Notes: generated by a model not told the origin, from the letters alone. 64,000 nt of DNA from Bilabrum cf. latius (GCA_965178125.1 OZ237765.1:62001-126000), one strand, 5' to 3'; shown: positions 1 through 64,000, counted from the first letter of the stretch. Numbers and translations: made by a program.

Positions 1-1461
1 CCTGGGGTACCAGCGGCTGCGCTGCAGTGTGATGCACTTTCCCACTGGACTGCACAATATCGACTACCCGCGAGTGCGAGGCACGTCCATGGTGCGACAT
101 GGATTTTGATTCATTGCCACCACTGGCAGTGGCGGAGGCATCGGCGGATTTTATTGGCCTCTATTTCTTGCCCTTCCGCACGATTCTGCTGGTATTGCCC
201 CGTGCATCCACAGCCGTGGTGCCTGGGTTTACGCTCAGCCTCTCCCAAAACGAGGCGGGCAGGCTCTCCGCGGACAGCTGCGACTCGAATCGCCAGTAGG
301 TTGGCAGCGCCGGGCTCATGATCCGGAAGGCGTCCAGGCGAGCGGCCATGGAAGGGAAGACAACCTCTAGTCCGGTGCTGCTCGATGGATAATTGCGGGC
401 TAGAGACCGCTCCATCTCGAGGTACAGCAGTTCGATAGGGAGACCGATCCAGCCGCTGAGCATTAACTTATTGGTGATTTCCTCCGCCGTCAGCGTGTCG
501 GTATTCAACTGCGCATACTCTGCACGAGTGTAATATGCATACTTTATGGCCACTGTGGCCGGACGACTGCGACAAAGGTTATTGGGCAAACGAAAGGCAG
601 AGGAAAATGCACCGAGCAAGTGATCAGCCTGTGCATTTCCCGGCATTCGACTACTGATACCGCTTTGCTGAGAGCTAATGCATGTGGCTTACAGAGCAAA
701 AAGTCTGCGAACAATAGAGCGACGAGGCAGGCGTGCTGGTGGGGCTGTCATTGATGGAGGCTCGTAGGCTCGAATATGATGTGCCGCCACGTCTCCAAAT
801 GGCATGCTTTCATCGAGCTCACACATGAAACGCGACGTACTCTACCGTGTACAACGACTCATAGCCCTTTTCTGTGTAGTAAGGCGCTACGATCATGATC
901 ATCCACATTGTCTGGAGCAGTAGCTAGAAGATGAACGGCCCTGGGCTCAAGCAGCTCGAACAATCTGGAAGAAACGAACGGTTGTAGAGACCGTGGATTC
1001 CATGATACCACCATATGACTGGGGTAGTGAGTACGGCGAAATAATTATACATGAACTCGGGCAGGAACTGGTCCCAGTGAAACTCGACCTGCGATAGGAT
1101 AGGCACTTCCGCTAGCTCGACTGTGACACCCACTAAGCCCGCAAGACTTATTCGGGTACGAATGGTGGAAATGTATATGCATTACATCGAAAACATTCAT
1201 TAAGCATCTCACCCTCGCATCGTCGCGACGAAGAAGCAGCTCAACAGCCTCAGCCGTTCGGAGTGTCTGTGCGATTATGGGTATGCTCGGCGTCTGCACC
1301 GGTTCTTCCTTATCCACTGGATTCTGCCAAAAACTAGAGGACTTAGATTCAAGTCTACTTCGCATGGTGAGACCCCTTGTGTACCCAATGAACATCCGCG
1401 ATTGCTTTTCGTTTCGCGGTCGCAACCGCATTACATTATTTGGTCGCATCACTGATGGCAT
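1..1461 (-). CDS. Partial, probably multi-exon membrane protein of unknown function; runs off the left edge
   Basis: Protein-like segments at 1045-1461, 924-1133 and 161-646. The 924-1133 segment continues through TAG 924 into hydrophobic LLLQTMWMIMIVAPYY. The 161-646 segment continues through TAG 161 and stays open to the window edge. GTGAG donor-like sites occur near 1213 and 822, but exon boundaries are not resolved. Confidence 0.4.
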
Positions 1462-1515
1462 GGGATGATCCTTGACTGGCCAAGCGCACTCGCACCCCGT
1501 CCAGTAAACACAACA

Positions 1516-3603
1516 TTACCCAACCAAAAACTTTCCGCCCGGCCCGCTCGCCCACGCCAGGCTCGCATCCGTCTCCACGAGCCACCCGCCCTCCGAGTCG
1601 CCGACCTCTTCCCGCTGCACTGCCTCGCCCGAGGCGACTGCCCGCCGCAGGCGCACGTCCCTGGGCCGCTGCCACCTCCCTGTCTCCTCCTGCAGGTGCA
1701 CAGGGCCCTCCCCCTTCCCGGGCCCACCCCCAAGCACTCCCGCCCCCTGTGGCCTGCTCGACTGCCCCATGGCCCCCCTCCACAGGGGACTCTCAGGTGG
1801 TACACCCAGCACCCCCACCCCCACCTCCGCCCCCACTTCGGGGTCACCTCCGAACTCCACCTGGCCCCTCTTCCTCCTCCCCCCGCTACCCCCTTTGAAC
1901 CCCTTTCCCCCTCTCCTTGCCCCAGCCTACCCCCCCAGCGGCGCCATCTCACCCGTGAAAGCCGCTTGCCACCAGGGGAACAAATGCTTCTCCATGTCTT
2001 CGCACAGCGCTTTGGAGGGCTTGGACAACAATTCCGATTGGCCCATCTGATTCCCAGTGCCATCGCATTCCCGCCGCAGCACGTAGGCCAGCATCTGCCA
2101 GTTGTCCCCAGTCACCACGCTGCCAGACATGGCCAGATCCAGCCCATCCCAGTCCTCGGGCTCGGACCGGGGATCCCTCTGCCTCAAAGGGTCCACGATC
2201 CTGGGGATGCCGCCTTTCGTCTGGTGCCAGTAGCCCTTGGGGTAGTACAGCAGTTCCCCCGGCATGAGATCCGCCCACCGGCAGGATGCCCTCTGCACGA
2301 GGGGGAATTTCTTGAAGTCGGGACGGAACATGTCCACCTCGCCCACCTGGTACAGGAGGGCAGTCTGGTTCGCGGGGCAGATGACCCACCGTTTGACGCC
2401 CGCCAGCTGCAGCTGCCATGACCCGCTGTGGATCGCGTCCCAGTGGAAGTTGATCCCAGCCCCGGGGGCCCCCATCGTCACCATGTCCCACCGCGTGATG
2501 TCCAAGAACTCCTCCATCAGAGCCTGCGAGCTGAAACCACCCTCCAGCCAGAAGCGGTCAGACCGGAACAATGGCGGGATGACGTGCCTCTCCGGCGCCC
2601 CCTCCCCCTCGGTACCCCCCTCCCCCTCCCCCTGCCCCTCCCAATCCATGCCAGTGTGCCCCCTCAGCTCGTCCCACAGAGCACGGGGGGGGCGGTAGAA
2701 GGCGTAAGGGGTCCGGAGCCTCGCGCCTGCACCCGGGCCCCTCCCCGGGTCATCCTCGTGAAACACGGACAAAATCCTGCGGTCCTGCTCCGTGGCGTTC
2801 CCGCCCCTGGCCCTCTGCTGCGCGGCGCGGATCATGCGGAACCTCTTCTGTTGCGGGAAGAGCTCCCTCTCCCAGCGGCCCACCCGCTTGAGCAGGCGCT
2901 TGACGGCCTCCACCACTGGCATATCGAAGGCCTGAGCCAGGGTGCGGTCGAGACCGTGGGGGTACAATCCGGTGTCGCTGATGGGCTTGGTCTCGTCGCC
3001 CGGTCGGATCGTGCCTGCGCGCACCTGCTCGTTGTGTGTGGCGAGCGCCTGCTTGCGGCGCTCGGCGGTGTTGGCCTTGCCAAACCAGCGTGCCAGCGAG
3101 GTCGCTGTGATATTCTTGTGTGGAAGCGGTAGACCAATGTCTGTGAGTATGAATGACTCCCTGCCCTCCAAGTAGTCGCGGTACTGAGGCAGATAAATAT
3201 CCGCTGCCCGTATTCGGGCCAGTGGCGCCAGAGGGATCCGCTGGAGCCCTTCCTCGGCCTCCCGCTTTGCCTCCTCGAGATCGACCATCGCTTTCTGCTC
3301 CTGGCGCTCGCATTCCCACATATTGAATGTCGCACTGTCGCCAAAAGGGTCCAAGTCGATCGAATGCTCGAGCCGAGTCCTGGAGTCCTGAATGTTTCCC
3401 TGTCGCATCTCACTCACAGCCACATTATTTAAAACACCCGGATCATTCGGATTCTCCTAGAGAGCGAGCAAAAAATAATGCAGCGCTCCGCTCTCGTTGC
3501 CCTTCTGGCCTTCACTTATTCCTCGGTCCATGAAGTCATTCACTCGATCCTGGCTGGTAAGGGCAAGCGTCGTCACTGCAGCCATGACAATAAGAACAAT
3601 CAT
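1516..3603 (-). CDS. Signal-peptide + TPR + JmjC/cupin-like 2-oxoglutarate dioxygenase
   Basis: ORFs 3457-3840, 1927-3423 and 1516-1860 share a frame and are joined by TAG at 3457 and 1927; the stop is TAA at 1516. Hydrophobic N-terminus MIVLIVMAAV. A TPR (ALHYFLLAL*ENPNDPGVLNNVAV) spans a TAG. JmjC motifs HWD...GVKRWVICP...PGELLYYPKGYWHQT. The start could instead be 3774. Confidence 0.75.
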
Positions 3604-3770
3604 GATCCCAACGCACGACACTACGCGCCGATACGAGGCGCAGTTTGCAGATGATGTGTGTGGTGTCGGCTTGACCCGGATGCCGACAGTGCGGTGCAGC
3701 CTGCGCTGGCACCGGCGGTGCTGTAACATACAAACCGAACCTGATTCATGCGGCCAATAATTTTCACTTT

Positions 3771-4703
3771 TCATGGCACGCCCGCCTTCCCTGGTCCGCT
3801 TCCGTCTTCCCCTTTCACCCACACGCAGGCCTCCACGCACACCTGCGCCCGATCAAACACGACCCAGCTGGCCCACGGCTCGGCCACCTCGCCCTCCGAC
3901 CCCGGCGCACTCGTCACGCGAGTCCACCGCCCTGGCCTGAGCACCCCACCAGAACCAGCCCCCTCTCCGTCTGCAAGCCTCCCCAGGGCCGCAGCTGCTA
4001 CGGCAGCAGAAACGGGCCCGCCCACAGGAAGCACCCCTGCTGCAGAGCCACTGGTCTGCATGCCCCCGCTGGCCCCCTCCGTGCCCTCCACCGCCGTGTC
4101 GCCGTCCTCCGCGTACCAATCGTCACACCACTCCGCGTCCTCGGATGGATCGGTGCAGCGCTTGCCCAGCCACATGAGGCTGTCGGCATCCCCGGGCGCG
4201 GCGCCCCGGGTGGTTCCGCAGAGCACAGGGGCCTCCCTCCCGAGGGCCGCGCGCACCAGCAGAAGCATGCACTCGTCACACCCCAAGGCCCCTGCATCCG
4301 CCAGCGCGCCCTCGGGCCGGTCGAACAACCTCAGCCCACGGGGACAGCCCCCCAGCCCGGTAAGGCCCGAGGATGCCTCACCAGGCTCGTCGATCGGAGC
4401 CATGGCACCGTGGGCCAAAACTGCCAGCTCCTGCCCCTGCCGCACCGCCGTCCACAACAGCCGAACATTCCGGGAAACGTCCCCTTTCCCCCCCTCCGTT
4501 GTTCCCTGGCGAAGCACAGCCTCGCTCCCCTTCGCCAGCCCTTCCCACCGCGCCTCTCCAGATCCGGATCCCGATCGCGCCCCCTGCATGGCCCACTTGA
4601 CTCGCAGGGCGCGCTGGAACGCGCTGAAGGCTGCGTGTTCCCCAGCGTGCCGGCAGCGGAAGGCACCGAGCACTTTCATTGCCTGTGGGCTGCTAGCCGT
4701 AAC

Positions 4704-4749
<46 letters not shown>

Positions 4750-6372
4750 GACAGACCTGTCCCCGCTGCATCAGGGGCAGGCGGCAGGGACAGGGACAGG
4801 GAGGCCTCCGGTCCCGCGCTAGGGGCACCTTCCTCACTCGTCACACCCACTGGCGCGCAGCACAGAGCGGCGATGGCCCGGCCCATGCGAGACCCAGGCA
4901 GCACGGCTCGCAAGGCGCGCCCTGTGGCCAGGCACAGCGCACTCGCAGGGGGGATGGACCCAGCGAGGTTCCCCTGCCGCCGGAGTGCAGCCAGTCGGCA
5001 GGCATGGGCCAGGGCAGGTGCAGACCACCGCCGCAGCAGCAGCAGAGAGCGCAACCCGCGGCGCAGGGATCTCGCGGTTGCAACCGGCGGCAGCTGTGTG
5101 TCGGGGACAGCCCTGGGCTTGAGCAGGGGGACGAGGCCGAGTGCCTCTCGCCAGAGGCGCAGGGCGGCGCGACGAATGCGGTGTGACGAGCGCAGCTTGT
5201 CGTCAGCCCTGTCCCCATCCCCCTCGTCTTCGTCCTCGTCGCCCTGGCCCTCGTCACACTCGTCACCCTGGTCCTCCATGGCCTCCAGCTCTCCCACGAG
5301 CGACCCCATGGACCGCATGGCGCCCTCCAGATGCACCTCCTCCACCAGCTCCAAGAGACCAGTCCAATCCTGCACCCAAGTCGGCTGGCTGGATGCACCC
5401 TCTATCGCGCCTTGCTATTCCCCCGACGTGCCAGCGGCGCCCTCGGCTCCATCGCCCTCCTCCTCCTCCTCTAGCATCGCATCAAAGGCCGCCTCGTCCT
5501 TGGCTGCCTGTCCCTCCTTCTTGGCTAAGACAGCCGCCTCGGGCCCGGGTCCCCGCATCCCCTCGGCCAGCAGCCCCCGCACCACGCGAGCCGGAGCACT
5601 GGCCCTCGCCATCAGCTGCTCAACGGACATGCGGAACGGGGGGATGCCATCCACGGGCGCGAGGCCCGGCATGCCCCCGAACAGCACCTGCCACTCTCCG
5701 TCATCTTCTTCATCTTCCTCCTCTTCACCCCCCTTGCCTTTCCGGCCTCCACGCTTCGATGCCGAGGATCCTGCTCGACCCCCCTTTCTCGCCTTCTTGC
5801 CAGTGGACAGCCGGCCCTTTCTCGCCGATTTTGCGCGCTTGGCAGGAGTCGGCGACCGTAGCATGTCCTCGAATTCACCCTCGGTGTCCAGTTGGCTTGC
5901 CTGCTCGGCACGACGGCGCTTGCGCTTGGGCTGCTTCGCTGGGGTCTCCGCGCCGGACTCATCACCCGAACTGCTTGCGGCACCACCCCTTTTTGCCAGC
6001 CTGCCTTTTCTCGGCTTCTTTGCACTAGCTGGGGCATCCTCTACTCGGTCATCGGCAGCCCCTTGAGCATTCGCGTACGCATCAGGCAAGGCTGCCTTGA
6101 TGGCAGGCTTGAACTTCTTGACTTCGTGTCGGCTCACTCCAAGGCGCTTACCGAGCTGCAATGCAAATTTAAACGCAATTTCAATGAAACACATACTTAG
6201 TATGCGACCCACATTATCCACGGTTAGGAGAGCAGATGCACTGGGATACTAATCTCACGGATTTCAGAAGCTGCTTGAATGTGATACTGCTCAGGTCGAC
6301 ACCGTCCGCATACTGGCTACTAATGAAGGCAAACAGATGCCTTTCAACATCCCCCTTCGTAACCTCAGACAT
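3771..6372 (-). CDS. Protein with N-terminal DEK-C-like domain and long low-complexity region; intron 6156-6258
   Basis: Exon 1 MSEVTKG...DLSSITFKQLLKS is joined by a GTGAGA...TTGCAG intron to exon 2 LGKRLGVSRHEVKKFKPAIK, giving a DEK-C pattern. A basic NLS-like stretch follows. In-frame TAG at 5415; stop TGA at 3771. Confidence 0.6.
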
Positions 6373-6737: not shown

Positions 6738-6777
6738 GTCGTGAACGTCCAGCCATAGCATGCTTCCAGGTCGTATC

Positions 6778-9700
6778 TCAGCCCATGGGTCTCCATGGCT
6801 CGGGCAACATGCCGCCGATCACCAGCGGATCCACCCACGCCTGCGTCTCCAGCGCATCCACCGACCCGCCCACCGGCACCAGGCCAGAGCCGCCCACTCT
6901 GCCGCCTACCAGCGCCCCGCCCGCCTTAGAGCCAGATGCACCGGACCCCCCTTTACGCCTCCCCGCCGCATCCGCCACGGGCCCCTCCCACGCCCCCTCC
7001 ACCCCCACGGCCAGCACCACACGGGATTGAGGCCGCAGAGCCACTGCCTCCCTCAGGCCAAACCACGCCCCCGCGAATGGCACGCACACCCCGCCCTTTG
7101 CCCCGCTGTTCCTCAGCCAGGCATCGTCCCGGGGACCCTCCGAAGTTCCTGCTGCCAGCCACACGCAGCTCCGATCGCGGATCGCATGCCTCACGGCAGC
7201 CTCCCCGGCCCCATCCGTCAGAGGTCCCCCCAGCCCCGGGCCCGGCTCCCCGCCCGTGGCCCCCCGATCATCGCCATCACGATGGTGCCCCGGGCCCAGC
7301 TCGCCCACCCTCGCGCACGGGTCGTCTTCGTCACGGCCCCTCCCCCGCATGACCGCCACAAGCGAGGCACCAGGGGTGCACTGCACTGCAGCACCCCCTC
7401 CCACCCCCTCCTCCCGCGGCCCCACTGCAGGCCCCTCTCCGAGACATGTCCCCCTGCAGTCCACAGTGAGGCAGTGCCCCAGCCCCAGCCCCGCCAGTCC
7501 ACCGAGCACAGCCGCATCCCCCGCCGCCGCCACCTCGAGGGCCCTCTCCACGGAGCTGCCGTCCCTCAATGAGGCACCCGCGATCCACCGGTAGGCCTGT
7601 CCCGCCGTGCCCTGGCCCAGACTGAACCCTGCTGCACTCGTCACACCAGAGGACCCTGTGCCCTTGCTAAGCTCGGGGCCCCCTGCCTCGGCTGCGGCTG
7701 CTCCTCCGCGCCTACCTCCACTCGTCACACCAGCGGACCCCTGCACGTGGGCGGCAGCCGCCAGCGCCCTTGCACAGGCAGGGTGCATGGCTCCCGTGAC
7801 TGCCATGTGCCTCAGAGACCGGAACAGACCACCTCTCCCGTCTCCACCTGGCCCTCCGCCCGACACTTCCTGCAGGTCCTGTGACAGCGCCGCACATGCA
7901 GCCCGTAGTGCCCTGGGCCTGTCCCTCTTTGCCCACCCAGGTGCGCTCCCACCCTCCTGCACCGCCACCCCCGCGCCACTGCCGGCCCCCTCGCCGTCCC
8001 CCTCGTGTTCCCTGTTGAGCAGAAGCGCGCTCCTCCTCTCCCCCAGCTGCTGCCCATGCAGCACACCCCCCGTCCCCGCCCCTGCCTCCCACTCCCCATC
8101 CGAGCAATCGGCGAGCAGCTCGCCCACCCCCGAGGACACCTGCCCCGATCCCGGCACAGGTCCACCTGCACTCCCGCTGCCACCCACCTGGGCGCCACCA
8201 GCAGCATCACCAGTACCGTCACCGTCGCTGTCGCTGTCGTCTTCCTCGGGGCCTTGCCCGCCAATAGGTGAAGCGGCATGGGCTGCCACTGCTGCCCCTG
8301 CTACCCCTTGGCCCGTCCCTGCTCCGGATCTTCCGCTGGGCCCAGTGCCGCTTGGAGCAGCCAGGTGTCGCCAGCCAGGCAGCGCGAGCAGCGGCGCAAA
8401 CTCAACGGATAGATCCCTCCAGGCACTCGCGCACCCATCGGACCTGCCGGCCAGCTGCCCCACCTGCAGTGCAGTGCACACGGCGCCCAGCCCCAGAGCA
8501 TCCCACCCCAGCCCAGCCGCCTCCTCCTCCTCCGTCGGCTCCCGCAGCGTCCGCCGCAGCAGCCGCACCCTGCCCCTGCCCGTGTCCACGCCGCCGCCAT
8601 CTTCACCTGACAAAGCACCCCCTGGCTTGCTTGTGCTCGCACCTGTCCCTGCCTTGCGTCTCCCAGCCCAGCTGCCGGCGGATGGAGGCTTGTACGCCCC
8701 TGTGCCTCCTGTGGTGGAGCTGCTAGCTCCCTTTGCTGCAGTGGCTCCTGCTGCACCACCATCACCTCCTGTAGATCTAGATGGGTGCAGCACACCCGCC
8801 GCGGGTTTGGCCATCCTCCTGAGCATGTCCAGCATCGCCTCTCCATCCATGTCCACAGCGGCAGTCACCTTCGCAAAGGCCTCCTGCCTTGGCCGCATCT
8901 CGAGCGACCTCAGCAGAGGGAGGCAGGCGGCCACGAGCATGGTCCGGGGGTGCATCCTGTGTGCCCCGCTGACTCGGAGGGTCCTGAGGGGGCTCCCCGC
9001 TAGTCCATGCCTCAATTCGATCGGAGAGGTGCTGGCGCTCAACCCCCTTGTGGGGTCACTTGCCCCCGCTGGACCCCTGCCCCCACCCCGGGGGCTCCGC
9101 GGGGCCATCGCCGGCAGGGTCACCCTCACTTCCGCTGTCTCCTTGGGGTGGCAAGCCATCGCCACGCGGCCCGCCACTCCCAGTGACCGCCCCACGGTTA
9201 GGATGGGGGACGCCCTAAGTGACCCCACGGTGGGGGGGAAGGACAGGTCCAGGTGCTCCAGGCGAGGCACGGCGCACAGCAGTGCAGACAGGTCCACAAC
9301 ATGTCCGTTGAGCTGCACAGTGCTCCCACCGCTGCCCCCTGCCGTGGCGCCTTGCACCCACATGCGCCGCATAGTCTGCCGCAGCACCCCCACGGCCACG
9401 GGGCCCCCAACTGGGGAGGGGCCTGCCTCCTCCCGGGGAGCTGCGCGGGTGCCTGTAACGCACCACCTGTGACGAGTGCGCGGCGCCGTTACTGCCCCAC
9501 CAGCCCCAGCTCCATCCCTACGCCCGCCCAGATCGATTCCGTCTGCCCCCCGCCCCGCCGCACGGTGCTCGTCTTCATCATCCCCACTGCCCGCCTCATC
9601 TTCATCGCTACTGCTGCTGCTCAGCGCCAGCCCACGCATCAAGCCCCCCCCCTGCCCACCCCTCCCTGTACCTGGCCTGCCGCCCCGCCCAGCACCACCC

Positions 9701-11916
9701 CTCCCCTCAGATGCAGGCCCCTTCCCCCTCGCCCTCCCGCGCCTGCCACCGCCCCCCTCTGGCCCTCTCGCGCCCCGGCCACGCACGGCCCCTAGCCCAA
9801 GCGCCTCCCTCGCACTCGTCACACGCCCTGCCATCTCTTCTACGCCCGCCTTGTTCCCCTCCAGAGGATCCTCGTCCATCGCCGCCCCTGACAGCAGGAC
9901 ACCCGCCGACTCGGCCGCCCCCGGCAGATGCAGCGGCCCGGTCTCCAGCTCGAGCTCGAGTGCCCGCAGGGTGCACCAGGGCCCCTCCGAGGAGACGTCG
10001 CCCGTGGCGGTGTGACGAGCGGCACGCTGCCCCAGATCGACGCACGTGGGCAGCAGCCCGCCCCCTGCCTCCGCCACGGCACACGCACTCGTCACAGCCC
10101 TAGGGTCCAGGTCCTCGTCCTGCAGACACCTGGCCCTGCACCGCAGCACGAGGAGCCTCTTGAGGGGCCGCAGCAGCTCCAGCACCGCGGCGAAGGACAG
10201 GCACCGAGTGGTCTCCGCCGGGAGAGCCAGCGCCCGCAGGCACTCGCATAGGCCCGTGGTCACCGGCGCCAGCATGTCTCGCACCAGCAGCTGCGTGCGC
10301 CCCACGGCCCGCCCAACCTCCCTGGGCCCGCACAGCCGGGGGTCCAGCGCCTCCGGCCCCCCTCTGAGCCCCTCCCCGCCCACTGTGACGGCCCACCCAC
10401 GCACGGACACCAGCGGATCCCCGCTGTCCGTCTCACTCGTCACACTCATCGGCTGGCTAAGGTCGAGGTACCGCAGCCCCGCACCCCCCCCTGCACCCCC
10501 CCCTGCCACGCCAGCCCCCCTTCGATGCAGCGCCTGCACCAGCGCCCGCGCCCCCTCGGGGTCCAGCCGGTGCCCCCGCAGATCCAGGGCCCGCCAGCGC
10601 CGGCCGGTGCCCTCCCCCCCCAGCACGAGGTCCGACACGTTCTCTATCCCGAATCGGTTGCAACCGCTCCCGTCCTCCGCCTCCGCGGTTGCAACCGCCG
10701 CCTGCCCCGCGAGCGCCAGCCTCCATTCCCTCAGCTCCCGCACCAGCCCATCATCCGCCGCCTCTCCGCCCGCCGAGGCACGCAGCGCCAGGCGCTCCAC
10801 CCGCATGGGATCGTCCTGCTGCTGCTGCTGCTCCTCGCCTTCACTCGTCACACCCTACCGCCGCACCGTCTCCTCCACGGTCTCGAGTCGCAGGGCAGCC
10901 GAGCGAGGCACCACCCTCGCCCCCGCCAGCCGGAGTGCCCCGAGCTGGGGAGCCCCCTTGCGGAAGGCGCGGATATCCACGGCCCCGCAGCCCCGCGCGT
11001 CCATGGCCCGCAGGCCTCGGGGAACAGCGACGCCCCTGAGGGAGGCCAGCGAGGCGCCATGCGTGCGCCCCAGCAGCAGCACCCGCAGGCCGCGCCAGGC
11101 CCCCAGCAGTCCCCAGTCCCAGGGGAGCCCACTGGAGGAAGACAAAGAGGAAGAGGCGGATTGGGCAAAAGAAGAAGTCGAGCCAACGATCCCGCTGCCG
11201 CTTGCAGCATTGGCCTGCCGCATCGCCCTCCCCATTCGTTGCGCCCTGCGGGCCATGTCCGAGCGTCTAAGCTGCTGCTGGGCCCGCCTCGCGTCTGCAT
11301 GGATGCTCTTCTCCAGCTTGCTGCCCGGGGGCGCCCTCGTCGAAGCGTCGATCGACTCGGCGCTCTGGGCGCCGGTGGGCAGCTAGGCGCCGCGCATGTC
11401 CAGGCACAGGAGGGCGTCCCGGGCGGATTCGCCTGCGAGAGGGTGTTCGGTCCATTTTAGCTCCGCGGCAGGTCCCTGCTCCCGGCCGCCGGCGTGCACG
11501 TGCTCGTCGTCGGCCGGCTCCCGGGGACCTCCCACCATGCGAGCGAGCAACGACCCGAGCTCCTCTTCCCCGAGCGACGCACCCTGGAAACTGAACCCAT
11601 TTGCATACGGGAATGTAATTGGTGAGATTTCTCGAGTCAAGCGCGACAGTTCGTCTGATGGGATGGAGTCCAGGCGCAGGGACTTGCTGGCGTGGCACTA
11701 CTAAAAGCTGCGAAATCCAGCCCACGATGCACCTTGCAGCGGCTTTCGCGCCTGAACAAGGTGCATCTAGTCGGTCGAAAGGCTATCCAGGTAGCCTGTT
11801 CGAACCGTGCGCCTCAAGTAGGCCCTGGAATCTTCCGCTATGAGGCCTGCCATCCCATCAAGTAGAAGCTCTTCCAGCGATGCACCACCGGATGTCTGCA
11901 CAAAGCACTCCGCCAT
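6778..11916 (-). CDS. Large (about 1710 aa) leucine-rich-repeat-like protein with Gly/Ala/Ser-rich insertions
   Basis: One frame runs from ATG 11916 to TGA 6778 with TAGs at 11767, 11701, 11698, 11383 and 10855. Scattered LxxLxLS motifs (WRALDLRG, LRYLDLSQ, LEHLDLSF, LRTLRVSG). Confidence 0.6.
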
Positions 11917-12451
11917 AATTGAGTCAGATCGATTGAATATTGTAAAAGTTCAGTTGTCACTTCTTGAGAGACTCAACAACAAAGAAATGGTTGTGAACCT
12001 GGCTCGCATGGATCGGGCATTCGAAACCGGAATCAGCCCGAGGCATACGGCGCCCCGGGCCGCCGCCACTGGCAGCGACAAACACCGTGCGGCGCTGCAA
12101 ACACCGCGTTAGTCCACCCGCACTGCTCCTTGCAGCCCACCATACTACTCCACTCCGCCCCACCGAGCTCCCAGCTCCCACAGGCCATGCCAGTTGGGTG
12201 CCTGCGACCCCTGGTGCGTCAAGTTGTCCCGCTGCTGGGCCGAGGGCCGTCTCTCGGGCTACCCAGCGCTGCGTGGTCCCAGGCCCGGCCAACTCATGCT
12301 GCCATGCACGATCGCAGCTGGCGGTGACTTGGTGGTGTACAGCACTTCTGAACCTCGGCTGGATCCGAGACATCGGGGGTCTCAGCTGAGCTTCACGACC
12401 TAGCTGCACCCTGCCGGCCTGGAGGCGGTCTGTCTTATGCCGGTACAGTGA

Positions 12452-13063: not shown

Positions 13064-13419
13064 GGCCGCAGAAGTCAGTTAAGATTTGCAGCAGATATCA
13101 CACAGAAAGCTTAAACTATCCTATGTTCGTAGAGAGAAGAGCGCAGCGCGCAGTGTGGTGTTTGTAGAGTTTGTCCAAGAAATGCTGTCCATCAATCGTC
13201 ACGACGACTGTCGGACGCACTGCATCGACGTGCAGCCAGACCTGCGAGGTGTCCCCCGGAAAGACACCCCCCAGATACAGCCCCGGTCAATGACGACCAA
13301 AGGCTCTTCTCCAGGTCCGACCAGGGTCCCCGGAATGTGCACCTAACCCGCCAAGGACCGCCCGCTAAGCCGTATGCTAAGCCCAGACATGCCTACCTAA
13401 ACCATGTCAATCCGCAGAT

Positions 13420-22542: not shown

Positions 22543-22575
<33 letters not shown>

Positions 22576-50147: not shown

Positions 50148-50301
50148 CATTGATTGTGTTGTGTTCTCGAAGTAGGCTGATTTGTTTACACAAGGGCCTG
50201 GCGCGTCAGCGTGCAGCAAGCCAACTTGTTTGAAGATGAAGATACCAACACGCCATGACGCGCAGAGATCTGTAGATTGCAAAAGCAAACCCGAGAACGA
50301 C

Positions 50302-52147: not shown

Positions 52148-52390
52148 TCGGGTGATTAACGTAACGCAGACAGGTAGCCCATGTGGCCCGCTGTACATGG
52201 AGACCTGGCGGTCTGGCTGCTTGTACGTGTATATATGCATGCATGCCGGATTATATATTCCATGCGTTTGCGTGTTCCGGTTGGGGGCAACCGCACCCAC
52301 ACCTCCACCAATTCGGCCTGTGTCGAGCGGAGAGTGAGAGGGGGGTGCACGTGGCCCACGCCCTGGCGTGCAAGGGCTCACACTCCTACC

Positions 52391-54133: not shown

Positions 54134-54412
54134 GGCCGGCAGAAAATGCGTCGATCAAGCATTGCCAACCGTTTCGAGTTCCGGAATGGGTGACGAGCGA
54201 GGGCTAGTAGTTGGATGCAGGCTGACTGGCTGTTGCAGGGTGGAAGGCGCGGTGCACATGCTGGAAAAGAATAATACATGGCGTTTGCAGCGTGGGCCTT
54301 AGCAAAATGTCCGAATTCAAGGGCCCCCCACCGCTCGCGGCCTCCGATCCACGGCTCGCCGCTAGCACAGCTTCGCGCCTGCCATCGCTGCCCTGGCCCG
54401 CCCTTTCACTCG

Positions 54413-55894
54413 TCACATAATGATCTTGCCCACCTCAAAGCAGTCCGCCTTGATGCCCTTGTGCGGGAGGACGATCGTCCCCTCCAGCGCCACCTCGGTT
54501 GCAACCGCCACGTCCTCCCCCAGCACACTCTTGCCCGCCACCCGGGCCCACGCCCCCACCTTGGAGTCCCACCCCACGATCGAGTCCTTCACCACCGCGC
54601 ACGCCCCCACGTGCACGCCCCCTAGGAGTGTCGCCCCCGACACCCGCGCCCCTTTGCCCACCACGCAGTCGGGGCCCACCACGACATCGGGCCCGACCTT
54701 GCAACCTTCCTCCAGAGCCGCGGAGGGATGCACCAGGACGTTCCCCACGATCCTCGGGTCCGCCCCCCCGTCCGCGAGGGCCGCTGGCGAACGTTCCTTG
54801 AGGCTCGCCAGGTGCATCCCGACACCGGCGAGGTAGTCCTTGGGCTAACCGATGTCCATCCAGTACCCCTTGAGCGCCATCGAGTATAGCTCCCCGTCGG
54901 CCGCCATGGCGGGGAAGACCTCCTTCTCGATTGAAGTGGGTCTGGATGGGATGCGGTCCAGCATGGAGGGAGAGAACAAATACAGGCCCGCGTTGATCTC
55001 GTCCCCGACGAACTCCTTGGGCTTCTCCACGAACCTGTCGATCTTGCCCTCCGCGTCGTGCACGACCACACCGTACTTGGACGGGTCCTTGACCTTGGTC
55101 ACGCAGATGGTCCCCTGCTTGCCGTGGGCCTTGTGGAAAGCGAGCATCTCCTCCAGGGGATAGTCGCAGGTCACGTCCGAGTTGAAGACGAAGAAGGGGG
55201 CGTCAGGCTCCCCCTCCGCGACCAGGTGGGCCCGTGCCAGCGCCAGGGGCCCGCCCGTGCCCATGGGCACCTCCTCTTCGGAGAGCGTGACCTTCACCTT
55301 GCACTGCGAAGGAAAGGAGAAGATACGGTGATAGAGTAAGAGACGTAAGTGAATACAATAGAAGTAATTATCATCTGGGGAGGCTATTGCGTGGCGTGCA
55401 AGCTGCCAATCAGCGATACAAGCGAGCACCGAGCAGCCGCCCCTCGAGTCGCACAAGAAACTCCCTCGCGGAAACCGGCGATACGTATCGCCGGAAACTA
55501 CGAGTAGCAGAGCCTGACAAGCGCGTCATGAAATGATGTAGCTATACTGCAGGCTATATGCATATCATAGAGGCCAACACGTCCTGCTCCGGGCAGATAA
55601 TCCGCCAAGATGCGCTTGCGCGTTGCATCAGTCAGTTGCCAGAACACGCGGGAAACGGCAACTACTACACGCAAGCGATCTCACAGTTTCCTCAATCTCC
55701 TTCAAAACAGCTACCATTGCGTCGGGCTTGAAGCCGACGGCAAGCACAACCTCGTCAACGCCAACTGCAGCAAGTGCCTCGATTTGGTGCATCACAATCG
55801 GCTTGTTGCAGAACTCTACGAGTGGCTTTGGCTTCGTGAAGGTCAGTGGTCGCAACCTTGTACCAAAACCACCAACAAGAATGAGTGCTTTCAT
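54413..55894 (-). CDS. GMPPB: Mannose-1-phosphate guanylyltransferase (GDP-mannose pyrophosphorylase); intron 55304-55684
   Basis: [69 protein letters not shown], hexapeptide repeats and a VLPHK...IIM terminus. GTGAGA...TCGCAG intron; stop TGA. Confidence 0.95.
55475..55494. repeat. Perfect 20-bp palindrome in the GMPPB intron
   Basis: CCGGCGATACGTATCGCCGG equals its own reverse complement. Confidence 0.9.
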
Positions 55895-56065
55895 CGCTAA
55901 TGAGTCTTTGACGGCTGCACTTGTGGGCTGAAACGCTTGGCCGGCTCGCGCGGGCTGGCACTCATCACAGCATTTCAGAAAGCAGATTTCCACCGTGGGA
56001 CGGCCACAAACCTGAGGTGCTACGGGCAATATGTGCCGTCGATAAATTTGTGTGAGTGTGCCAGC

Positions 56066-58765
56066 ATGAGGCCATGGGCGCGAATCGTATCGCCTCGAGA
56101 CCGTGGCAAGAATCCGTATCCATCGGCTCTGAAGAGCTCTGGGGGGTAGCAATTGGATGGCGAGGCCGCCCCAAGCACTGCAATATGCTGTGTTAAATAC
56201 ACCACTGCTTCGGACCGTACGGGTGGTTTGCAATCGGGAACAGACGACTCTGTCACTCTGTCAGTGGCTGTCGGGGATGAAGATGGCTACATTTGGGCGT
56301 GCCAGCCGGCGAGCCGGTCCCATGCACTGGAACCGTTCCGCGCGCACATGGCACCTGTATGTGGCGTTGAATAGCTGGACTCGGAGCAGCTGCCGTGCGC
56401 TGCGGGCAGCTTTGTGCTCGCCTCGAGCGGCAGAGATGGCGAATGCTCGGTTTGGCGCTGCCAGGCACTTGCCCTGGGGCAGCTGCCGGAGGGACGGCCG
56501 CAGGTGCAGCAGATCGTGCGGGTTCGTAGTGCTATTGGCTCCTTCTGCGCCGCTCGGTTCCTTGCCTGGCCGGCCCCGATTCATCCCGCGAGTGTGACAG
56601 AGAAAAGTGCCCAGGCTCGGGCTCGGGTGCTCGTGGCGGCACCGGGGTGCGGGGAGGGCGGTGCCTTCCTGTGCCTGTGCGAGGAGGAAAGCGAGCAGCA
56701 GGCAATGGGTGGCAGTACAGGTGTGACGAGTGAGAGCAAGTCCCAGGGAGACGGGGAAGGGGCTAGGGGATCAGATCCCTGGGCCCAAGGGGCCAGTTGG
56801 TCGCAAGCATGGGGCTGCTTGCTGGGCCCACCGGAGGCACCCCCGGGGGATATCGCTGCGGAGGCACTAGGCATGGACCGTTTGAAGAAGAAGAACAAGA
56901 AGAAGAACCGAAAAAAGAAAAAGCAACAGGCGGGACTGATGCATCTGCAGGGGCTCGAGCCTGCACCCGGCAGCGAAGAGGAGGATGAGGAGGACGACGA
57001 ATAGGACCCGGACGACGCGGGCGGCTCCCCGTCCTCGTCAATGCCCGGGGAAGCGATGCTGATGCACATCGACCTGGTTCCGCAGTTGCGCGGCGCCCTC
57101 ATGATAAGGTCCTACGATGGTGGGGTGGTCTCTTGCGACACGATTGCGATCCCCGGCGTCTCAGGTGCATCGCAGGGTGGCGCAGGCACGTCCTCCGACT
57201 TCCGTGCGCCCGAGATGGGCAGGAAGACGGTGTCGGCGCGCGCCGCCAGGTGTTCCGTGTTGTGCACTGCCACCGCCCCTGCGAGGATGCTGGGTGCACC
57301 GCACGGTGGTGGGACGCGGCCGTTCTTGGTGGCCTGCGGGACGTCCTCCCGGGTGCTCTCCTTTTTGGTGCTTAGGATGAAGGCGGGGAGAGGCATCCAG
57401 GGTGCAGGGGCTGGGACAGGTGGGATCGAGGGTGGCCCGGGGTTGTTGAGGACAGCGAAAAAGACTGCATCGGGGGGCACGAGACCCCTTGTTGTGGAGT
57501 TGGGTGTGGATGGAGGTGTGGATGGAGGTGGAGGCGTCCATCGGGAGAGTGCCAGTTCCAGTGCCCCGGCCCCGGCCCCGACCTCTGCAGCTGGATTCGG
57601 CAGCAGCAGCAGCATAGGCAGTCAGTCCGGGCCCCTCGTTCCCGAGAGCATGTGCCTCGGTCTCGCGCTGCAGCTGCCCACCAAGGGTATCGCTGAGGTG
57701 AAATGGATCCCGGAGACAGAGGGCGGCGATGCGATGGGGAGGAGGACGGGCAGCGCGGCTGGACACTCGTCAGGTGCGGGTGCAGGCGCTTGGGTTGAGG
57801 CTGGGGCTGTTTAGCACGATGATGTCGCGGGGCATGGCAGCAGCAGCGGTCCCCGCTCGCTGCTGGGCGTGGCCTGCTGGGATGGGACCCTGCGGCTGGT
57901 GCGTGCCTGTGTGACGAGTGCGAGCGACGAAGAGATGCAGGCGCGGCGGCGGGGAGTGTCCCTCCAAGGGGGGCTGCTTGAGGAGGGGGGTCTTCAGACC
58001 AAGGCCAAGGGCATGGGCAAGGGCAAGGGCAAGGTGAAGGGGTGGATGCCCGAGGCCCTGGGCCCCTGGGAAGTGAGGGCGAGTCAGGTGATGGTACTCG
58101 GGGCAGCGGCACCGCATGCTGGGCTCATGCTGGCAGGGGCTGCCGCTGCTGCCGCTGCTGTCGCTGCTGCCGCTGCTACCGCTGCTGGTGCTGCTGGTGC
58201 AGGGGACAGGCCCGGCCCCGGCTCTCGGTTGGCGCACGAGGATGGTGCGCCGGTGGGAAAACGATAGCTGGTGGATGGGGCAGAGGCGGAGGCAGTTGGA
58301 CCAGCCAAGGCCGATGGCATCGGGGCCAGCGCTATGATGAGTGTGAGAAAAACCGGAATCAGCGAGCAGCAGGTGTCCGCCCAGCCGGATGCCGGGCAGG
58401 GACAGCAGCAGGAGCAGGAGCAGGAGCAGGAGCTGGCCGTGCTGGCAGAGGAATTCGGAATCAAAAATCTGAACGCAGGAGGTCTTCTCCGCCTGTCCTC
58501 TGCCAGGCGGAGGGCGGCTGTGGCCGAGGCGGTGGGGCGGGGCACCAACCGGGCGGGGGGGCTGCTTGCTGCGGCCCCCAGCAGGGAGGCCCAGGCGGTG
58601 GGCTGGGACCCCGTCTCTGCCTCGGCGGGGCCCGTGCATGCCGGGGGTGCGACTGGGCTCGGCGTGACGATTTCCAGCGGTGTGATGAGTGGTGGGGGTG
58701 GCGGTGTCGTGCTCGCGGCGGGGGACAAGAGCGGCGCCGTGACGGCATGGCTCCCTCTGGGGTGA
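56066..58765 (+). CDS. WD40 protein, GNB1L/ASA1-like (about 900 aa with insertions)
   Basis: [52 protein letters not shown] and [13 protein letters not shown]. One frame with TAGs at 56147, 56372, 57002, 57812 and 58265; stop TGA. Confidence 0.7.
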
Positions 58766-59055
58766 GCGAGGTGTGATGAGTGGTGGGGGTGGCGGTGTCG
58801 TGCTTGCGGCGGGGGACAAGAGCGGCGCCGTGACGGCATGGCTCCCTCTGGGGTGAGCGAGGTGTGATGAGTGGTGGGGGTGGCGGTGTCGTGCTTGCGG
58901 CGGGGGACAAGAGCGGCGCCGTGACGGCATGGCTCCCTCTGGGGTGAGCGAGGTGTGATGAGTGGTGGGGGTGGCGGTGTCGTGCTTGCGGCGGGGGACA
59001 AGAGCGGCGCCGTGACGGCATGGCTCCCTCTGGGGTGAGCGAGGTGTGATGAGTG
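58679..59055 (+). repeat. Tandem repeat of four 91-bp units plus a partial unit, duplicating the 3' end and stop codon of the WD40 gene
   Basis: Units start at 58679, 58770, 58861, 58952 and 59043 (partial). They are near identical, with one C/T difference in unit 1. Confidence 0.95.
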
Positions 59056-59148
59056 CATCGGTCAGATCACAGGATGGATGAATCAAAGTAGACTATTGCA
59101 TCTAAAATCTCATGCCAATTGTGGCGCGTCTCATGTGACACAACCCGT

Positions 59149-62100
59149 TCAGAACCCGATCGTGGTGACACCAGCGCGGCTGCTCCTCCTCGAGTTCGCA
59201 GAGGAGGCGCTGACGGCGCTGTGCCTGGAGGCCTGCCCGCCATGATGGCGACCCGCCGCATGGTGACCCGCCGCATGCTGGTGGCGCCCCCGCTCCCCTC
59301 TGCGACCGCTGTGGCCCCCACCCTCAAGCCCAGCTCCAGCCCCAGCCCCAGCCCCAGCCCCGGACCCTCGAGGCCTCCTCGATTCCATGACCTGCTGCCG
59401 CCTCGACGGCTCCCTCCGTATCCTCAGCGACAGCACGTCAGATCGCCCCTCCCTCGCGCGGTGGTACAACGCCCGATCATCTTCATCTTCATTTTCGGGC
59501 CGAGCAGTCCCCAGAGCGGCAGGGGGCAGACTGCGGGCGCCGCCCGAGACAGACGATGAAGATGAAGAAGCGAACATGTGCGAGAAACTGCCCTATCTGA
59601 TGGGAAGTCCCGGCTGCTGCAGCCCTCCAGACACTGCACTGTGGTGCCCTGCCCCCCGAAGGTGCTGCTCCCCGCGCACCACAGCTGCGCCCCACTGGGA
59701 GCCTCCATCCTCCTCCTCCTCCTCCTCCTCCTCCTCGTCCTCGTCCTCGTCATCATCCCCGCTCCCCGACGAGTCCCCGTCATCAAGCGCGCCATCATCA
59801 TCAGATCTTGTCGTGCTACCCTAGTGCCCCCCACCCTATTCTTGTTCCCCATGCCCTCCACGAGACAGCTCCACCCGCCTCCTCTTACTGGCCCTGGGGC
59901 CGTCCTCCCCGCCCCCACTAGCCCCCGTCTAGTGGCTCTCCTGGGACGCCTCCGCGCCCCACTCGTCATCCTCTCCCGTGCTGGCTCCCACCGCATCCTC
60001 GTCCTCATCCTCATCCTCATCATCATCGTCCTCCTCCTCCTCCTCATCCGCTGACACCACCTCGCCCCTGGAGTTGACCTCCATGGCCTCACCGCGGCTC
60101 GACTCCGCCCCCATATCCGCAAAGCTAGCCAGCGAATGGGAGTGGGAGGCGCCTGCACCAGCGATGGAGCGCTGCCGCACGCCTCCACCAGCACCCTAGC
60201 TACCCCCCTGAGTCTTGTTCCCTGGGCCCATGGCCCGGTGCATGGCGCCCCTCACCCTCGCCCTGGTGGACGCGACCCCGCTCTCCAGCGAGTCCACCAG
60301 CTCCTGCCTCTCCCGCGCTCGGATGGCTCCTGCGGCCGCTTCCAGGGCGCGCTCCTCTGGGTCTGCAGACCCCGGGGAGACTACCCGTGTGACGAGCATG
60401 GGCCTGATCCTCACCCGCCTGCGCTTCCTGCCGTTGCGCAGGATCGACCGGGGTCCTCGCTGCTGCTGCTGCTGCTGCTGCTGCTCTCGCTTGTCAGCTC
60501 GCTGCGACAGTTCTGTGCCCGAGCCCCTGTCCACTCTCGTCCCAGTGCCTCGCACCTTCCCGTCCTAGTCAGCGTACTAGCCGTGTTCCCCAGGAGCACG
60601 ACCCGCGTGTTCCCCAGGAGCATGACCCGCCTGGACTGGCGCCGAGCTTGCACTCTCCACTGGCAGCCGACGGAAGGCTGCAGCAGGCTGATGACCAATA
60701 CCACGACCATGACCATGACCATGATCTTGCAGCGCATGCATGTGACCGTGAGTGCTGCCACCATCGTGCATTGCACCCCCCGCACTTCCGACCACACGTG
60801 CCTATACCTCGCTGTTCCTGGTTGGTACCCCAGACCTGCTAATCCCAATGCCCGCCTGCACTGCCAGCGCCTGCACCACCGGGTCTGGCAGCCTCACCAG
60901 CTGCAGGCCGCCGCCCCATGCCGGGAGCCAGGCCCACTGCGGGAGCGTGCTGGGAGCGGTAGCAACGCGAGTGGTTGCAGCTGCATACACTGATGCTGCT
61001 GACGCCGATGATGACGAAGCAAGGGCAGCTTGCACACTTCCGGCACCTGCATTGGCCTGTGGTGAGAGCGCCGGTACGCGCAACGCCGCAGAGGCAAGAT
61101 GAGTGTCAGGGTGCAGCCCACGGCGGTGCAACACACCCGCTGCAGTAGGAAGTGCATCCCGTGCTTCCCTGGCCCTTGCCCTGCTGGCCTGCAGCGCCGC
61201 TCTCACGCTCGCTGGGCTGTGGGGATCCCCCTCTGTCCCCCACCGGCGCAGCGGGAGCCCCTCCCCACGGTGGGCCACCCGTTGTTCCCTGGGACTGCGC
61301 AGTCCCCTGGATCTCGGCTGTTCACCGGGGCTCCGGGGCCCCCTCCTTGAGCTGGCTCTGCTCCACGGGGATCTAGGAGGAGAGGGGAGCGTGGGCTGCT
61401 CCTCGGGTGCTGTGGCTGCCAGCCCGTCGGCTGACCCCTGCGAGTGTCCGTCCATGGTGCCGCGGGCTGAGCGGCTGTCTGCGTCATCCCCGGCCAGGTT
61501 ACTTGAGAGGCCATGCTCTCGATCGGGCGTGACGAGACGCTGTTCCCTGGCCCGGCCTAGTGCAGCGGCACCTCCTGCAGCACTGGGGCTGGGGCTGGTC
61601 CTGGTGCTGCTGCTACGACTCGCGGTGGCGCTTTCTGCTGCGTGAATGCTGCTGCTGTCAGATCTACCAGCTGCAGTGGCCTCAACTGGACTGGTGGCAG
61701 TTGCTGCGCTGCTCGAAACCGCCCTGGCTGGCAACGTCTGGCTCTTGGGCTGGTGATCCGTTGGCGAGGCACCGCCACTCCCTTCTGCACCCGTGCCTGC
61801 TACACCACTGGCAGCACCCTCACTGTTAGCGTAAGCGTGATCGTCGCGCTTTGGCTCGCTAGCCTGCTGCTGCCTTGCAGTGGCAGTGCGTTGATCAGCG
61901 CGCCCGGGCGAGACCTCCTCCCCAGATGCGGCAAAAGCCTCGGCTGCTTCTGAAAGCGGACAAGAATCAGCTGCTGCCTCGATCGGTTTACCGGCCTTCA
62001 TATCTGCTTCAGCTGCCTCGCCGCTGGCATCAAGAGGGACGCGGAGCTCGCCATCATCCCCCTATTCGTCGTGGCCATCGTCGCGCATGGACACTTGCTC

Positions 62101-64000
62101 GTCAGTACCCCCGCATGCACTGGTGTGCCTGGGGTCCTCATCCCGCGCATGCCCTGGCTCATCCATCTGGTCCTTCTTGTTATTGTCCTCGTCCTGCCGG
62201 ATATTGGAAGCTGCAGCTTCCTTATCTTGCTCTTCATTGGTCCCAAATGCGTCACCAGCTGCCTACAGCACCTCATTGCGCATGGCCTGCCCCTCGACTC
62301 CGCCTTCGATAGAGCCTTTGTGCGCCATTCGGCTCGTCTCATCACGGCCTCTGACCTCCTGCTTCTTCCCACCGTCCTCGTCCCCGTCCTCGTCGTTGTC
62401 CATCGGTGCCTGTCCCGAACTGGCGCTCTCATTGGTACCACTGCCACCGGCCTCTTTCTTGACTGAGGTCGAGCTGCTAGCCCCAGCCCGAGCTCCAGCA
62501 CCAGCACCAGCTCCAGCTCCAGCATCACCTGTCGAGTTGAGCCTGCACCTGAACTCAGCCTCTGGCCTCACCACCCGCTCCAGCCACGCCTCATGCGAAT
62601 CCAGCCAATTGACATGCCCCCCCTCAGCCCCCCCCTGAGTCCCCCCCTGAGTCCCCCCCTCAGGCCCCCCCGTCAGCACCGCCGTCTCCCCTCGCCTCAC
62701 CCTCCCGATCATCCCTGCCACGCTCCTGCTTACCCCGCCCGCATCCTGTTGTTCCCCGGTTGCAACCATCTCCCATAGCATAGCCACGTAACCCCCAGAC
62801 CCTTGTTCCCTGACTAGCCACTCCACGGTGCTGCTCGCATCCAGGAGCACCTGGCGAGAGGCATCGCTAGGGCTGGCAACGCGGTTCGCCGCCCCGCAGA
62901 GCAGCAGCTGCTGCGGACGGCCCGCCTGCGGAACCGACCGGATGGCGAGCGCGGCGCCGGGCAGTGCCCCGATCATGGGGGCCCACTTGCCCTTGCCCAG
63001 CTTCCTGGGTATCTCCGAGAGCGGCTTGGCGAGCGCCACGCTCAGTGCCCGCCTGGGGGGCACACCATGCTTGAGGGCCAGGGTGCGGGCGCGGGCGGAC
63101 GCAGGCAGCACGAAGATGACGGCGCGGTCTGGTTTGCAGGGGGGCAGCGGCCTGAGCGGCTGGGGGGGTTGCTGGTGTGACGAGTGCTCGGTCCCTTGTC
63201 GCATGCCGGCGCTCGGCCGCTTGAGGGGCGAGCCGAGCGCGGCGGCGGCTGCCTCCACAGCGGCCTCAGCGGGATCCGTTTCTCTGCCTGCTCCGCCTGC
63301 TCCGCCTGCTCCGCCACCGTCCATGATACCACCAGCGTCTTTGGCGCTGTCTTTCTGTGCACCCATGCTCTTCTCGCTGTCGGGCGAAGGACCGGATGGT
63401 GAACCGCCCGTTGCTGCTTTCTGCAGGGCGGGCCTCGTCTTGGCGCCCTGATGCACCTGGGCCTGCACCTGGGCTTGAGCCTGGGCCTGGGCCTGGGATG
63501 CAGACTCGGCTGGGCGAGCTGCAGCACCATGCAGTGCACTCGCGGTGGGAGAGTCGGCGGGAGGAGGAGTGAGTCCCGAGAAGGAGCCCATGCCTGCTCC
63601 AGTACCGCGCGACCCCTCGGTCTCGGTCCCAATGCGCAGCCCCTGCCGCTTCTCGTGTCGCTCTCCTACGGCCGGCACTGCGGCCCGCTCCTGCACCGCA
63701 ATGCGATGCATCGTCTCACGGCCCGGCAGGCTGTCCTCCATCGCAAGGGCACTGTCGTGCATTGCAGACTGATGCGGCCCCGATGCCCCCACGTTGGGGG
63801 GAAACCCCAGCAGGGAATCCCCCGGGATCAGCCCCCCCTGCCCACGAATGAAAGCCATGAGGCTGTCTTCGCCGGCCCCTGAGAGCGAGCCCAGACTGGC
63901 TCCATTGGTATTCGTCACACCCGGCCCCATCTCGTCCTTGTCCTGGTCCCAGGGCCGGCTGGTCCCACCCGCCAGAGAGTGGGGCAGACCCGGGGCACCG
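59149..64000 (-). CDS. Large low-complexity protein, 5' end outside the window; possible Cramped/TKI1-like domain
   Basis: One frame runs from the right edge to TGA 59149 with TAGs at 62263, 62062, 60802, 60577, 60565, 60196, 59929, 59821 and 59593. The segment VIFVLPAS...LKHGVPPRRALSVALAKPLSEI...KW resembles my recollection of the CRAMP1/TKI1 conserved block, which is a weak match. Confidence 0.55.

Follow-up and report, generated by a model that had tools for sequence, protein, structure and literature searches.

We analysed the TAG codons that stand in frame in the genes of a 64,000-nucleotide stretch of DNA (OZ237765.1:62001-126000, called the window here), and the genetic code in which these genes appear to be written. 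The window has 64% G+C over its 64 kb. With only TAA and TGA taken as stops to delimit open reading frames (ORFs), it resolves into about 22 genes, 16 of which lie on the minus strand, and the GC skew is negative across most of its length. Gene density is high, with about one gene per 3 kb, and introns could be demonstrated in just two genes. Matches to Pfam support genes for a JmjC/cupin protein, the OB domain of RNA polymerase I subunit RPA43, NECAP (DUF1681), a C2H2 zinc finger array, a PYROXD2-like oxidoreductase, a bulb-type lectin, a pectin acetylesterase/Notum protein, guanylate kinase, alpha-galactosidase, a DGAT2-type acyltransferase, GDP-mannose pyrophosphorylase (GMPPB) and an RRM protein. 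In-frame TAG codons occur in 21 of the 22 genes. The sole exception is guanylate kinase (49389-50147, plus strand; Guanylate_kin, 4.2e-51; stop TGA), the coding part of which is TAG-free; the first-pass annotation considered below had not named this gene.

The 20 stop-to-stop ORFs contain 63 in-frame TAG codons, and the spliced alpha-galactosidase gene adds two more (50311 and 51102). A first-pass annotation of this DNA had counted about 60 by hand and described 22 of about 23 genes as interrupted; the trait and the approximate number of codons are borne out, while the gene count is 21 of 22. The sequence contexts which it quoted (GYWMDIGxPKDY, EEQQQEQExEQGQ and EQEDRxREQxRK) were all located. 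Not every one of the 63 codons is coding: TAG 51251 is intronic, and several near the 5' ends of long ORFs precede the likely starts (for example 21714-21411, 23637, 28959 and 35841). The tandem TAG-TAG that had also been reported exists (11700-11705), but the codon-usage score is about zero on both of its flanks, and it is probably non-coding. The score is likewise near zero at several of the TAGs in the 5' parts of long ORFs.

In seven genes the TAG codons can be judged against homologous sequences, and homology continues through them. The gene for GMPPB (54413-55894, minus strand) consists of exon 1 (55894-55685), an intron (55684-55304) and exon 2 (55303-54416), followed by the stop TGA at 54415-54413; its TAG is at 54847-54845. 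The pectin acetylesterase/Notum gene (42471-43898, minus; Pfam PAE, 1e-67) has three TAGs inside the domain (43553, 43331 and 42971), and the PYROXD2-like oxidoreductase (33667-36225, minus; stop TGA) has TAG 34587 in its conserved body. In the JmjC/cupin gene (1516-3852, minus; Cupin_8, 6.9e-13; stop TAA at 1516-1518), TAG 3459 lies in a TPR-like N-terminal part and a second TAG at 1929; the alignment to a 94%-identical relative (P0279) spans both. The DGAT2-type acyltransferase (52391-54154, minus; DAGAT, 8.5e-30; stop TGA) carries TAG 53464 between a conserved N-terminal part and the DAGAT domain, and TAG 52453 in its C-terminal tail. The bulb-type lectin repeat protein (39317-41110, minus; B_lectin, 1.2e-8) has TAGs at 40198, 39958 and 39634. 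A WD-like ORF (55904-58765, plus), the likely coding sequence of which begins at 56066, contains five (56147, 56372, 57002, 57812 and 58265).

Seven homology-bracketed spans were defined in these genes: GMPPB exon 2, the acetylesterase domain, PYROXD2, the JmjC protein as aligned to P0279, the acyltransferase, the part of the WD gene aligned to a related metagenome contig (L001, see below) and the lectin repeats. Over their 2,969 codons we found 13 TAG, no TAA and no TGA in frame, compared with 69 TAG, 20 TAA and 161 TGA in the five other frames. At the background TAG share of 0.28, the chance that all 13 in-frame stops are TAG is about 5e-8 by our own arithmetic. A codon-usage score, trained on Pfam-supported segments with stop codons set neutral, allowed a comparison that is independent of ORF calling. 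Coding-like codon usage on both flanks was found for 9 of 675 TAG triplets, but for none of 269 TAA and none of 1,327 TGA. The in-frame TAGs are therefore confirmed as real and far beyond chance.

Among the 21 ORF ends examined, TGA occurs 17 times, TAA four times and TAG never (TGA 16 and TAA 4 in 20 ORFs, plus the TGA of guanylate kinase), and in this small sample none of the ends requires TAG as terminator. The C-terminal residues of GMPPB are the same as in its homologues and are followed directly by TGA. The codon-usage score falls after the TAAs at 1518, 13422 and 26991.

Three alignment columns point to the amino acid inserted at UAG. The TAG of GMPPB falls in a column where all 10 homologues aligned, out of 120 listed, have Gln. 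In column 116 of the acetylesterase alignment (n=21), Gln is found 12 times, followed by Lys (5), Glu (2), Asp (1) and Ala (1). TAG 39958 of the lectin gene corresponds to the Gln of the curculin segment LVLQKDG in both curculin chains shown that span it in PDB alignments; we take this position to be the Gln of the QxDxNxVxY mannose-binding motif. When all seven alignable columns were summed as weighted log-odds (in bits), Gln ranked first with 3.51, followed by Lys (0.55), Ala (-0.28), Glu (-4.6), Ser (-9.4), Tyr (-12.4) and Leu (-17.7). From this small sample of columns Gln is the best-supported meaning of UAG, as had been proposed.

A relative offers a further view of the same codons. The top match of GMPPB, a protein with 86% identity (P0001), is encoded on L001, a metagenome contig of 6,940 bases with 56% GC. 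L001 is syntenic with the window over the start of the WD gene, both GMPPB exons and the acyltransferase gene, at 72-86% DNA identity, and its frames also hold in-frame TAGs. In well-aligned blocks, TAG in the window faces CAG in L001 in GMPPB and CAA at residue 157 of the WD protein, whereas at WD residue 187 CAG in the window faces TAG in L001. Thus, all three well-aligned substitutions at TAG are to CAG or CAA. At WD residue 82 TAG is found in both. The TAG trait is thus older than the split of the two species, which are clearly different. The genes of L001 end in TGA (GMPPB) and TAA (acyltransferase), the latter as a tandem TAA TAA (4347-4352). Downstream of the TGA of GMPPB a TGCAGA hexamer repeat is located (2234-2263). 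Synteny stops after the acyltransferase gene, since what follows on L001 (4810-6939, minus) is a 710-codon open frame with 11 TAGs which has no Pfam match and no likeness to the window. No further DNA from relatives was found in genome contigs (queried with part of the acyltransferase gene and with P0279) or viral contigs (queried with part of the acyltransferase gene).

Protein sequences from relatives of the JmjC gene show a corresponding pattern. P0279 ends immediately before a CAG of the window (residue 728), and two other proteins, P0283 and P0431, break off midway through the cupin domain, immediately before another CAG (residue 496). To judge from the protein ends alone, these proteins were presumably called with the standard code and cut short at a TAG.

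Matching sequence was found in eight public sequencing runs from four studies, none of whose records carries an RNA label; four of the runs (X1, X5, X6 and X7) were compared over 39300-59299. In the DNA run X1, contigs (41896-51054 and 51974-58392) include the introns without a break. X5, X6 and X7, from two studies other than that of X1, have contigs that lack 50385-50566, 50928-51065 and 55304-55684, each of which begins with GT and ends with AG when read on the coding strand. The introns removed are 138-381 bases long. The skip at 55304-55684 fuses a 70-codon exon 1 (ATG at 55894) in frame to exon 2, giving a GMPPB of 366 residues. Because of these joints we take X5-X7 to be RNA. The first-pass annotation had called for TAG to be confirmed in mRNA reads, and the intron-less GMPPB contigs of all three runs do retain TAG 54847 with no other letter, their RNA nature being deduced from the joints. 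Pieces from X5 span 12 TAG codons in five genes, again with no other letter (46112, 47339, 47624, 47780, 48071, 51102, 52453, 53464, 54847, 56147, 56372 and 57002). They include pieces over a TPR-containing ORF (44562-46716 and 46762-48236, with no differing letters), the acyltransferase gene (52260-54131) and the WD-like ORF (56060-57510). Among the runs compared there are no differing letters beyond position 41768. Provided that X5-X7 are RNA, the agreement between X1 DNA and the intron-less contigs indicates that the TAGs were correctly assembled and are not removed by splicing or editing.

Taken together, the window very probably comes from the nuclear genome of a eukaryote that is GC-rich and poor in introns. 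In this genome UAG serves as an ordinary sense codon, most likely for Gln, while UGA (mostly) and UAA terminate translation. This corresponds to NCBI table 15, the code originally suggested: UAG stands in frame opposite Gln, and UAA and UGA are terminal and never found in the bracketed frames.

Several observations weigh against this interpretation. The first concerns decoding itself: a tRNA scan and an Rfam scan of the 64-kb window gave no match, a tRNA scan of L001 was likewise empty, and eRF1 is not among the genes of the window. Two further truncation sites in JmjC relatives precede GCG and GAG of the window. In the linker and tail of the acyltransferase, TAGs of either species face GGC, GAC, TTC and AAG; we set these pairs aside, as the alignment is gapped, of low complexity and unreliable. 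Other contrary points come from gene ends, from the scarcity of TAA, from variable alignment columns and from the records of the sequencing runs.

At two gene ends TAG is found within the final two codons. It is located one codon before the TGA of the TPR-containing ORF (TAG 43928; 43923-43930) and two codons before that of the acetylesterase gene (TAG 42479; 42471-42481). TAG makes up about 0.3% of codons (14 of 4,911), so that two such cases in 21 ends exceed expectation (estimated p ~0.01) and leave room for a residual stop role. UAG could thus be ambiguous, specifying Gln inside genes and acting as a context-dependent terminator at some ends, as in Condylostoma, karyorelicts and Amoebophrya sp. 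ex K. veneficum. A third TAG 20 codons before the stop of the acyltransferase gene would fit this view, and relatives of the acetylesterase end two to three residues past the CNPTC motif, which is compatible with both readings. However, TAG codons that were once stops and are now backed up by another stop close by would look identical, and we found no ORF whose homology or codon usage ends at TAG without a TGA or TAA close by. The acyltransferase tail in L001 runs well beyond the aligned TAG position. Further, TAA and TGA never occur in frame here, unlike in the known ambiguous codes as far as these are described in the consulted part of PMC12005148. We consider an ambiguous UAG unlikely and tentatively favour the reading of the terminal TAGs as former stops that are now read through to the back-up stop.

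If UAA also specified Gln, as in the code of table 6, internal UAA might simply be scarce through GC bias. Reassignments of both UAA and UAG are, moreover, much commoner according to the sections of PMC11687900 and PMC5304391 consulted. CAA and CAG are used in a ratio of 26:132, which predicts about three internal TAAs for the bracketed spans if UAA were sense. Their absence thus has low power to exclude a rare sense UAA, and it is mainly the terminal TAAs that speak against a table 6 code. These close four of the 21 ORFs of the window and one of two genes in L001; three of the four are those followed by the drop in codon-usage score. Neither the bracketed codons nor the 269 TAAs examined for two-sided coding signal gave an internal case. 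UAA probably still acts as a stop on this evidence, as first claimed, and its assignment to Gln is quite improbable.

UAG might also be a sense codon for another residue, with Lys as runner-up, followed by Ala, Glu or Tyr. Gln is not the favoured residue in four of the seven TAG columns that could be aligned. Column 190 of the acetylesterase alignment (n=21) has Thr 7, Gln 4 and Lys 3, and column 310 has no Gln in 21 sequences. The PYROXD2 column (n=119) holds mainly Tyr (47) or His (34), with Lys 11 and Gln 0. In the JmjC column, Lys is found in the 94%-identical relative, then Ala and Glu. Many TAGs, moreover, lie within acidic runs, Lys is the second residue in acetylesterase column 116, and on columns alone it is just about 3 bits behind Gln. 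These four columns, however, are variable and therefore say little, whereas the GMPPB column is invariant, the lectin motif position is Gln and every ortholog substitution is CAG or CAA. Glu and Tyr score far below Gln in the log-odds sum. A residue other than Gln is very unlikely.

The library type of X5-X7 is unrecorded, and an automatic guess for X5 is 'probably DNA'. A few of the 63 codons are non-coding, but that the TAGs in general are untranslated (through pseudogene decay, faulty assembly, undetected small introns or RNA editing) is extremely improbable: TAG alone affects nearly every gene, DNA and intron-less contigs show no other letters from 41769 on, one TAG is kept in a relative with a DNA identity of about 75%, and the genuine introns have GT-AG ends and are removed.

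The remaining genes also carry in-frame TAG codons. At one edge of the window, an ORF with no assigned function or Pfam match (2-688, minus) contains TAG 163 and runs off the window. It is followed by the JmjC/cupin gene and by a low-complexity ORF with no assigned function (3771-6254, minus; stop TGA), in which TAG 5417 is in frame and TAG 6251 is probably 5' of the start. A long ORF, also with no assigned function (6778-11949, minus), has TAG 10857 and 11385; TAG 11769 and the tandem at 11703/11700 have a coding score of about zero and are probably non-coding. The RRM protein (12452-13078, minus; RRM_1, 4e-11; stop TGA) has TAG 12745. A very long ORF (13420-21720, minus; stop TAA at 13420-13422) shows a weak TMTC/DUF1736 match (25.8 bits, cut-off 27) and contains TAG 19809, 15498 and 14787, and four more at 21714-21411 probably precede the start. 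In RPA43 (22423-23733, minus; RPA43_OB, 1.5e-10; stop TGA), TAG 22863 lies in a Glu/Gln run and TAG 23637 is probably upstream. The adjacent membrane-protein-like ORF (23655-26888, plus; TAG 24591 and 24828; stop TAA) has no significant family. NECAP (26989-29046, minus; 7.9e-16; stop TAA at 26989-26991) has TAG 27489, with TAG 28959 probably upstream.

Among the gene names first proposed, GMPPB, the OB domain of RPA43 and NECAP (DUF1681) are confirmed by Pfam, while RBM18 is backed just by the RRM_1 match and TTC27 just by TPR matches below the Pfam cut-offs. The latter concerns the long TPR-containing ORF (43923-49331, minus), which holds TAG 48071, 47780, 47624, 47339 and 46112 in addition to the TAG that adjoins its TGA.

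A transmembrane ORF (29054-30166, plus; stop TGA) contains TAG 29537 and 29558, and 3' of these a Thioredoxin match below the cut-off (E 0.029). It is separated by a perfect 46-bp tandem repeat (6.1 copies, 30277-30557) from the C2H2 zinc finger gene (30831-32666, minus). The latter is an array of 12.9 copies of an 87-bp unit, with TAG 32261 in a Ser-rich N-terminal part. Next to PYROXD2 on the map, a Glu/Ala/Lys-rich repeat ORF (36175-38289) has been assigned to the plus strand, with TAG 36505, 37201 and 37213. It includes 27 copies of a 30-bp unit (37225-38071) which reads EEEEAARKQA on the plus and SSSSACLRAA on the minus strand; as both strands are open, its coding strand is unsettled. The lectin gene and the stretch that follows it seem to be present in multiple copies. 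In this region (39300-41900), both X5 and the DNA run X1 show a word depth 10 to 300 times as high as over neighbouring genes, and variant letters are numerous.

The alpha-galactosidase gene (50302-52147, plus; Melibiase_2, 3.7e-17; stop TGA) is interrupted by GT-AG introns at 50385-50566, 50928-51065 and 51185-51411. In its spliced coding sequence, TAG 50311 is located in a signal-peptide-like start and TAG 51102 in exon 3. Comparison of exon 3 alone with the PDB gave only a chance match, the query being too short. The WD-like ORF ends inside a 91-bp tandem repeat (58679-59055; 4.1 copies, 99% matches), which starts in the last codons of the ORF and takes in its TGA; the later copies are out of frame because the period is not a multiple of three. 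Depth and joints accumulate at about 58000-58200 in all four sequencing runs. The final gene, a long low-complexity ORF (59149-63999, minus) with ten in-frame TAGs from 62265 to 59595, runs off the window edge.

The affinities of the genes are mixed. The named matches of GMPPB are a protein from the Symbiodinium KB8 assembly and proteins of green algae (57-63%), those of the acetylesterase are from diplonemids (about 37% identity), and that of PYROXD2 is from Cafeteria roenbergensis (42%). In single-gene FastTree trees built from best matches only, GMPPB of the window and P0001 fall in a clade of 10 with the Symbiodinium KB8 assembly protein (support 0.889), and the PYROXD2-like protein groups with Cafeteria roenbergensis and two unnamed proteins (0.99). 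We draw no placement from these trees, as they are of this limited kind and conflict with each other. A dinoflagellate spliced-leader motif gave no match when up to three mismatches were allowed. Amoebophrya sp. Kv is rejected as the source, since it is described as AT-rich and all three of its stop codons occur in frame. The earlier statement that the organism is not a ciliate fits the 64% GC, the GT-AG introns, the gene set and the best named matches.

According to the parts of the two surveys consulted, UAG = Gln is known from four lineages (PMC11687900); the table 15 code is reported there for the fornicate Iotanema spirale, the ciliate Protocruzia tuzeti and two lineages of phyllopharyngean ciliates (PMC5304391, PMC11687900). 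As in these systems, UAG alone is found inside the genes of the window, the aligned residues point to Gln, and UAA and UGA stand at gene ends. However, the known cases are ciliates or an anaerobic metamonad, while the window has 64% GC and its relative 56%. The main stop of the window is UGA (17 of 21) instead of UAA. It also differs in having GT-AG introns and in its best named homologues, which are from Cafeteria, a dinoflagellate assembly, diplonemids and green algae.

Reading of both UAA and UAG as Gln is listed in the same survey for many ciliates, Hexamita, ulvophycean green algae, Streblomastix and Amoeboaphelidium (PMC11687900, consulted part). These codes share with the window a stop codon read as Gln and the expected mechanism, a mutated tRNA-Gln with a changed eRF1, but the window and L001 use TAA as terminator. 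The ambiguous codes treated in the part of PMC12005148 consulted and in further abstracts are those of Amoebophrya sp. ex Karlodinium veneficum, Condylostoma magnum, karyorelicts and Blastocrithidia. As in the window, in-frame stops affect roughly half of the genes or more in these organisms, among them housekeeping genes, and the transcripts retain them. Two or three stops are in frame there, and Amoebophrya Kv is described as AT-rich, as opposed to TAG only in a GC-rich genome. UAG is likewise decoupled from UAA in the rhizarian exLh (Leu), a phyllopharyngean ciliate (Leu) and Scotinosphaera (Ser), as given in the consulted parts of PMC5304391 and PMC11687900. The residue differs from that proposed here, the log-odds of both Leu and Ser in the window being far below that of Gln.

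By analogy with the systems described in the consulted part of PMC5304391, UAG would be read by a tRNA-Gln with anticodon CUA, one anticodon change away from tRNA-Gln(CUG). Such a tRNA would pair with UAG and not with UAA. The release factor eRF1 would be weakened for UAG, with much of its grip on this codon lost. A suppressor tRNA competing with eRF1 is suggested because the GC-rich setting is ill-suited to codon capture under AT pressure.

The code itself is already known as table 15; what would be new is a further lineage, GC-rich and not a ciliate, that uses it. In the open full-text literature searched, we found no report of a nuclear UAG = Gln code in another such lineage, nor of any case beyond ciliates and Iotanema. 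The sequencing runs date from 2025, and a description may exist or be forthcoming. The chances are about even that the window represents an undescribed clade of GC-rich eukaryotes, which independently made UAG = Gln and kept UAA and UGA as stops. Such a clade would comprise two or more species, with an identity of about 75% in coding DNA, and the protein collections searched contain no close relative of it that is named. If so, the gene ends with TAG before TGA would be fossils of old stops, or else signs of context-dependent termination at UAG.

For the organism and its relatives, annotation with the standard code would be wrong for nearly every gene, and public proteins of the relatives are visibly shortened. 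Changes of the nuclear code are rare, and the parting of UAG from UAA is rarer still. Another lineage, GC-rich and not a ciliate, for which DNA and apparent RNA are public, would make it possible to test independently how UAG escapes eRF1 while UAA remains a stop. The same lineage would also test whether tRNA-Gln(CUA) arises alike each time.

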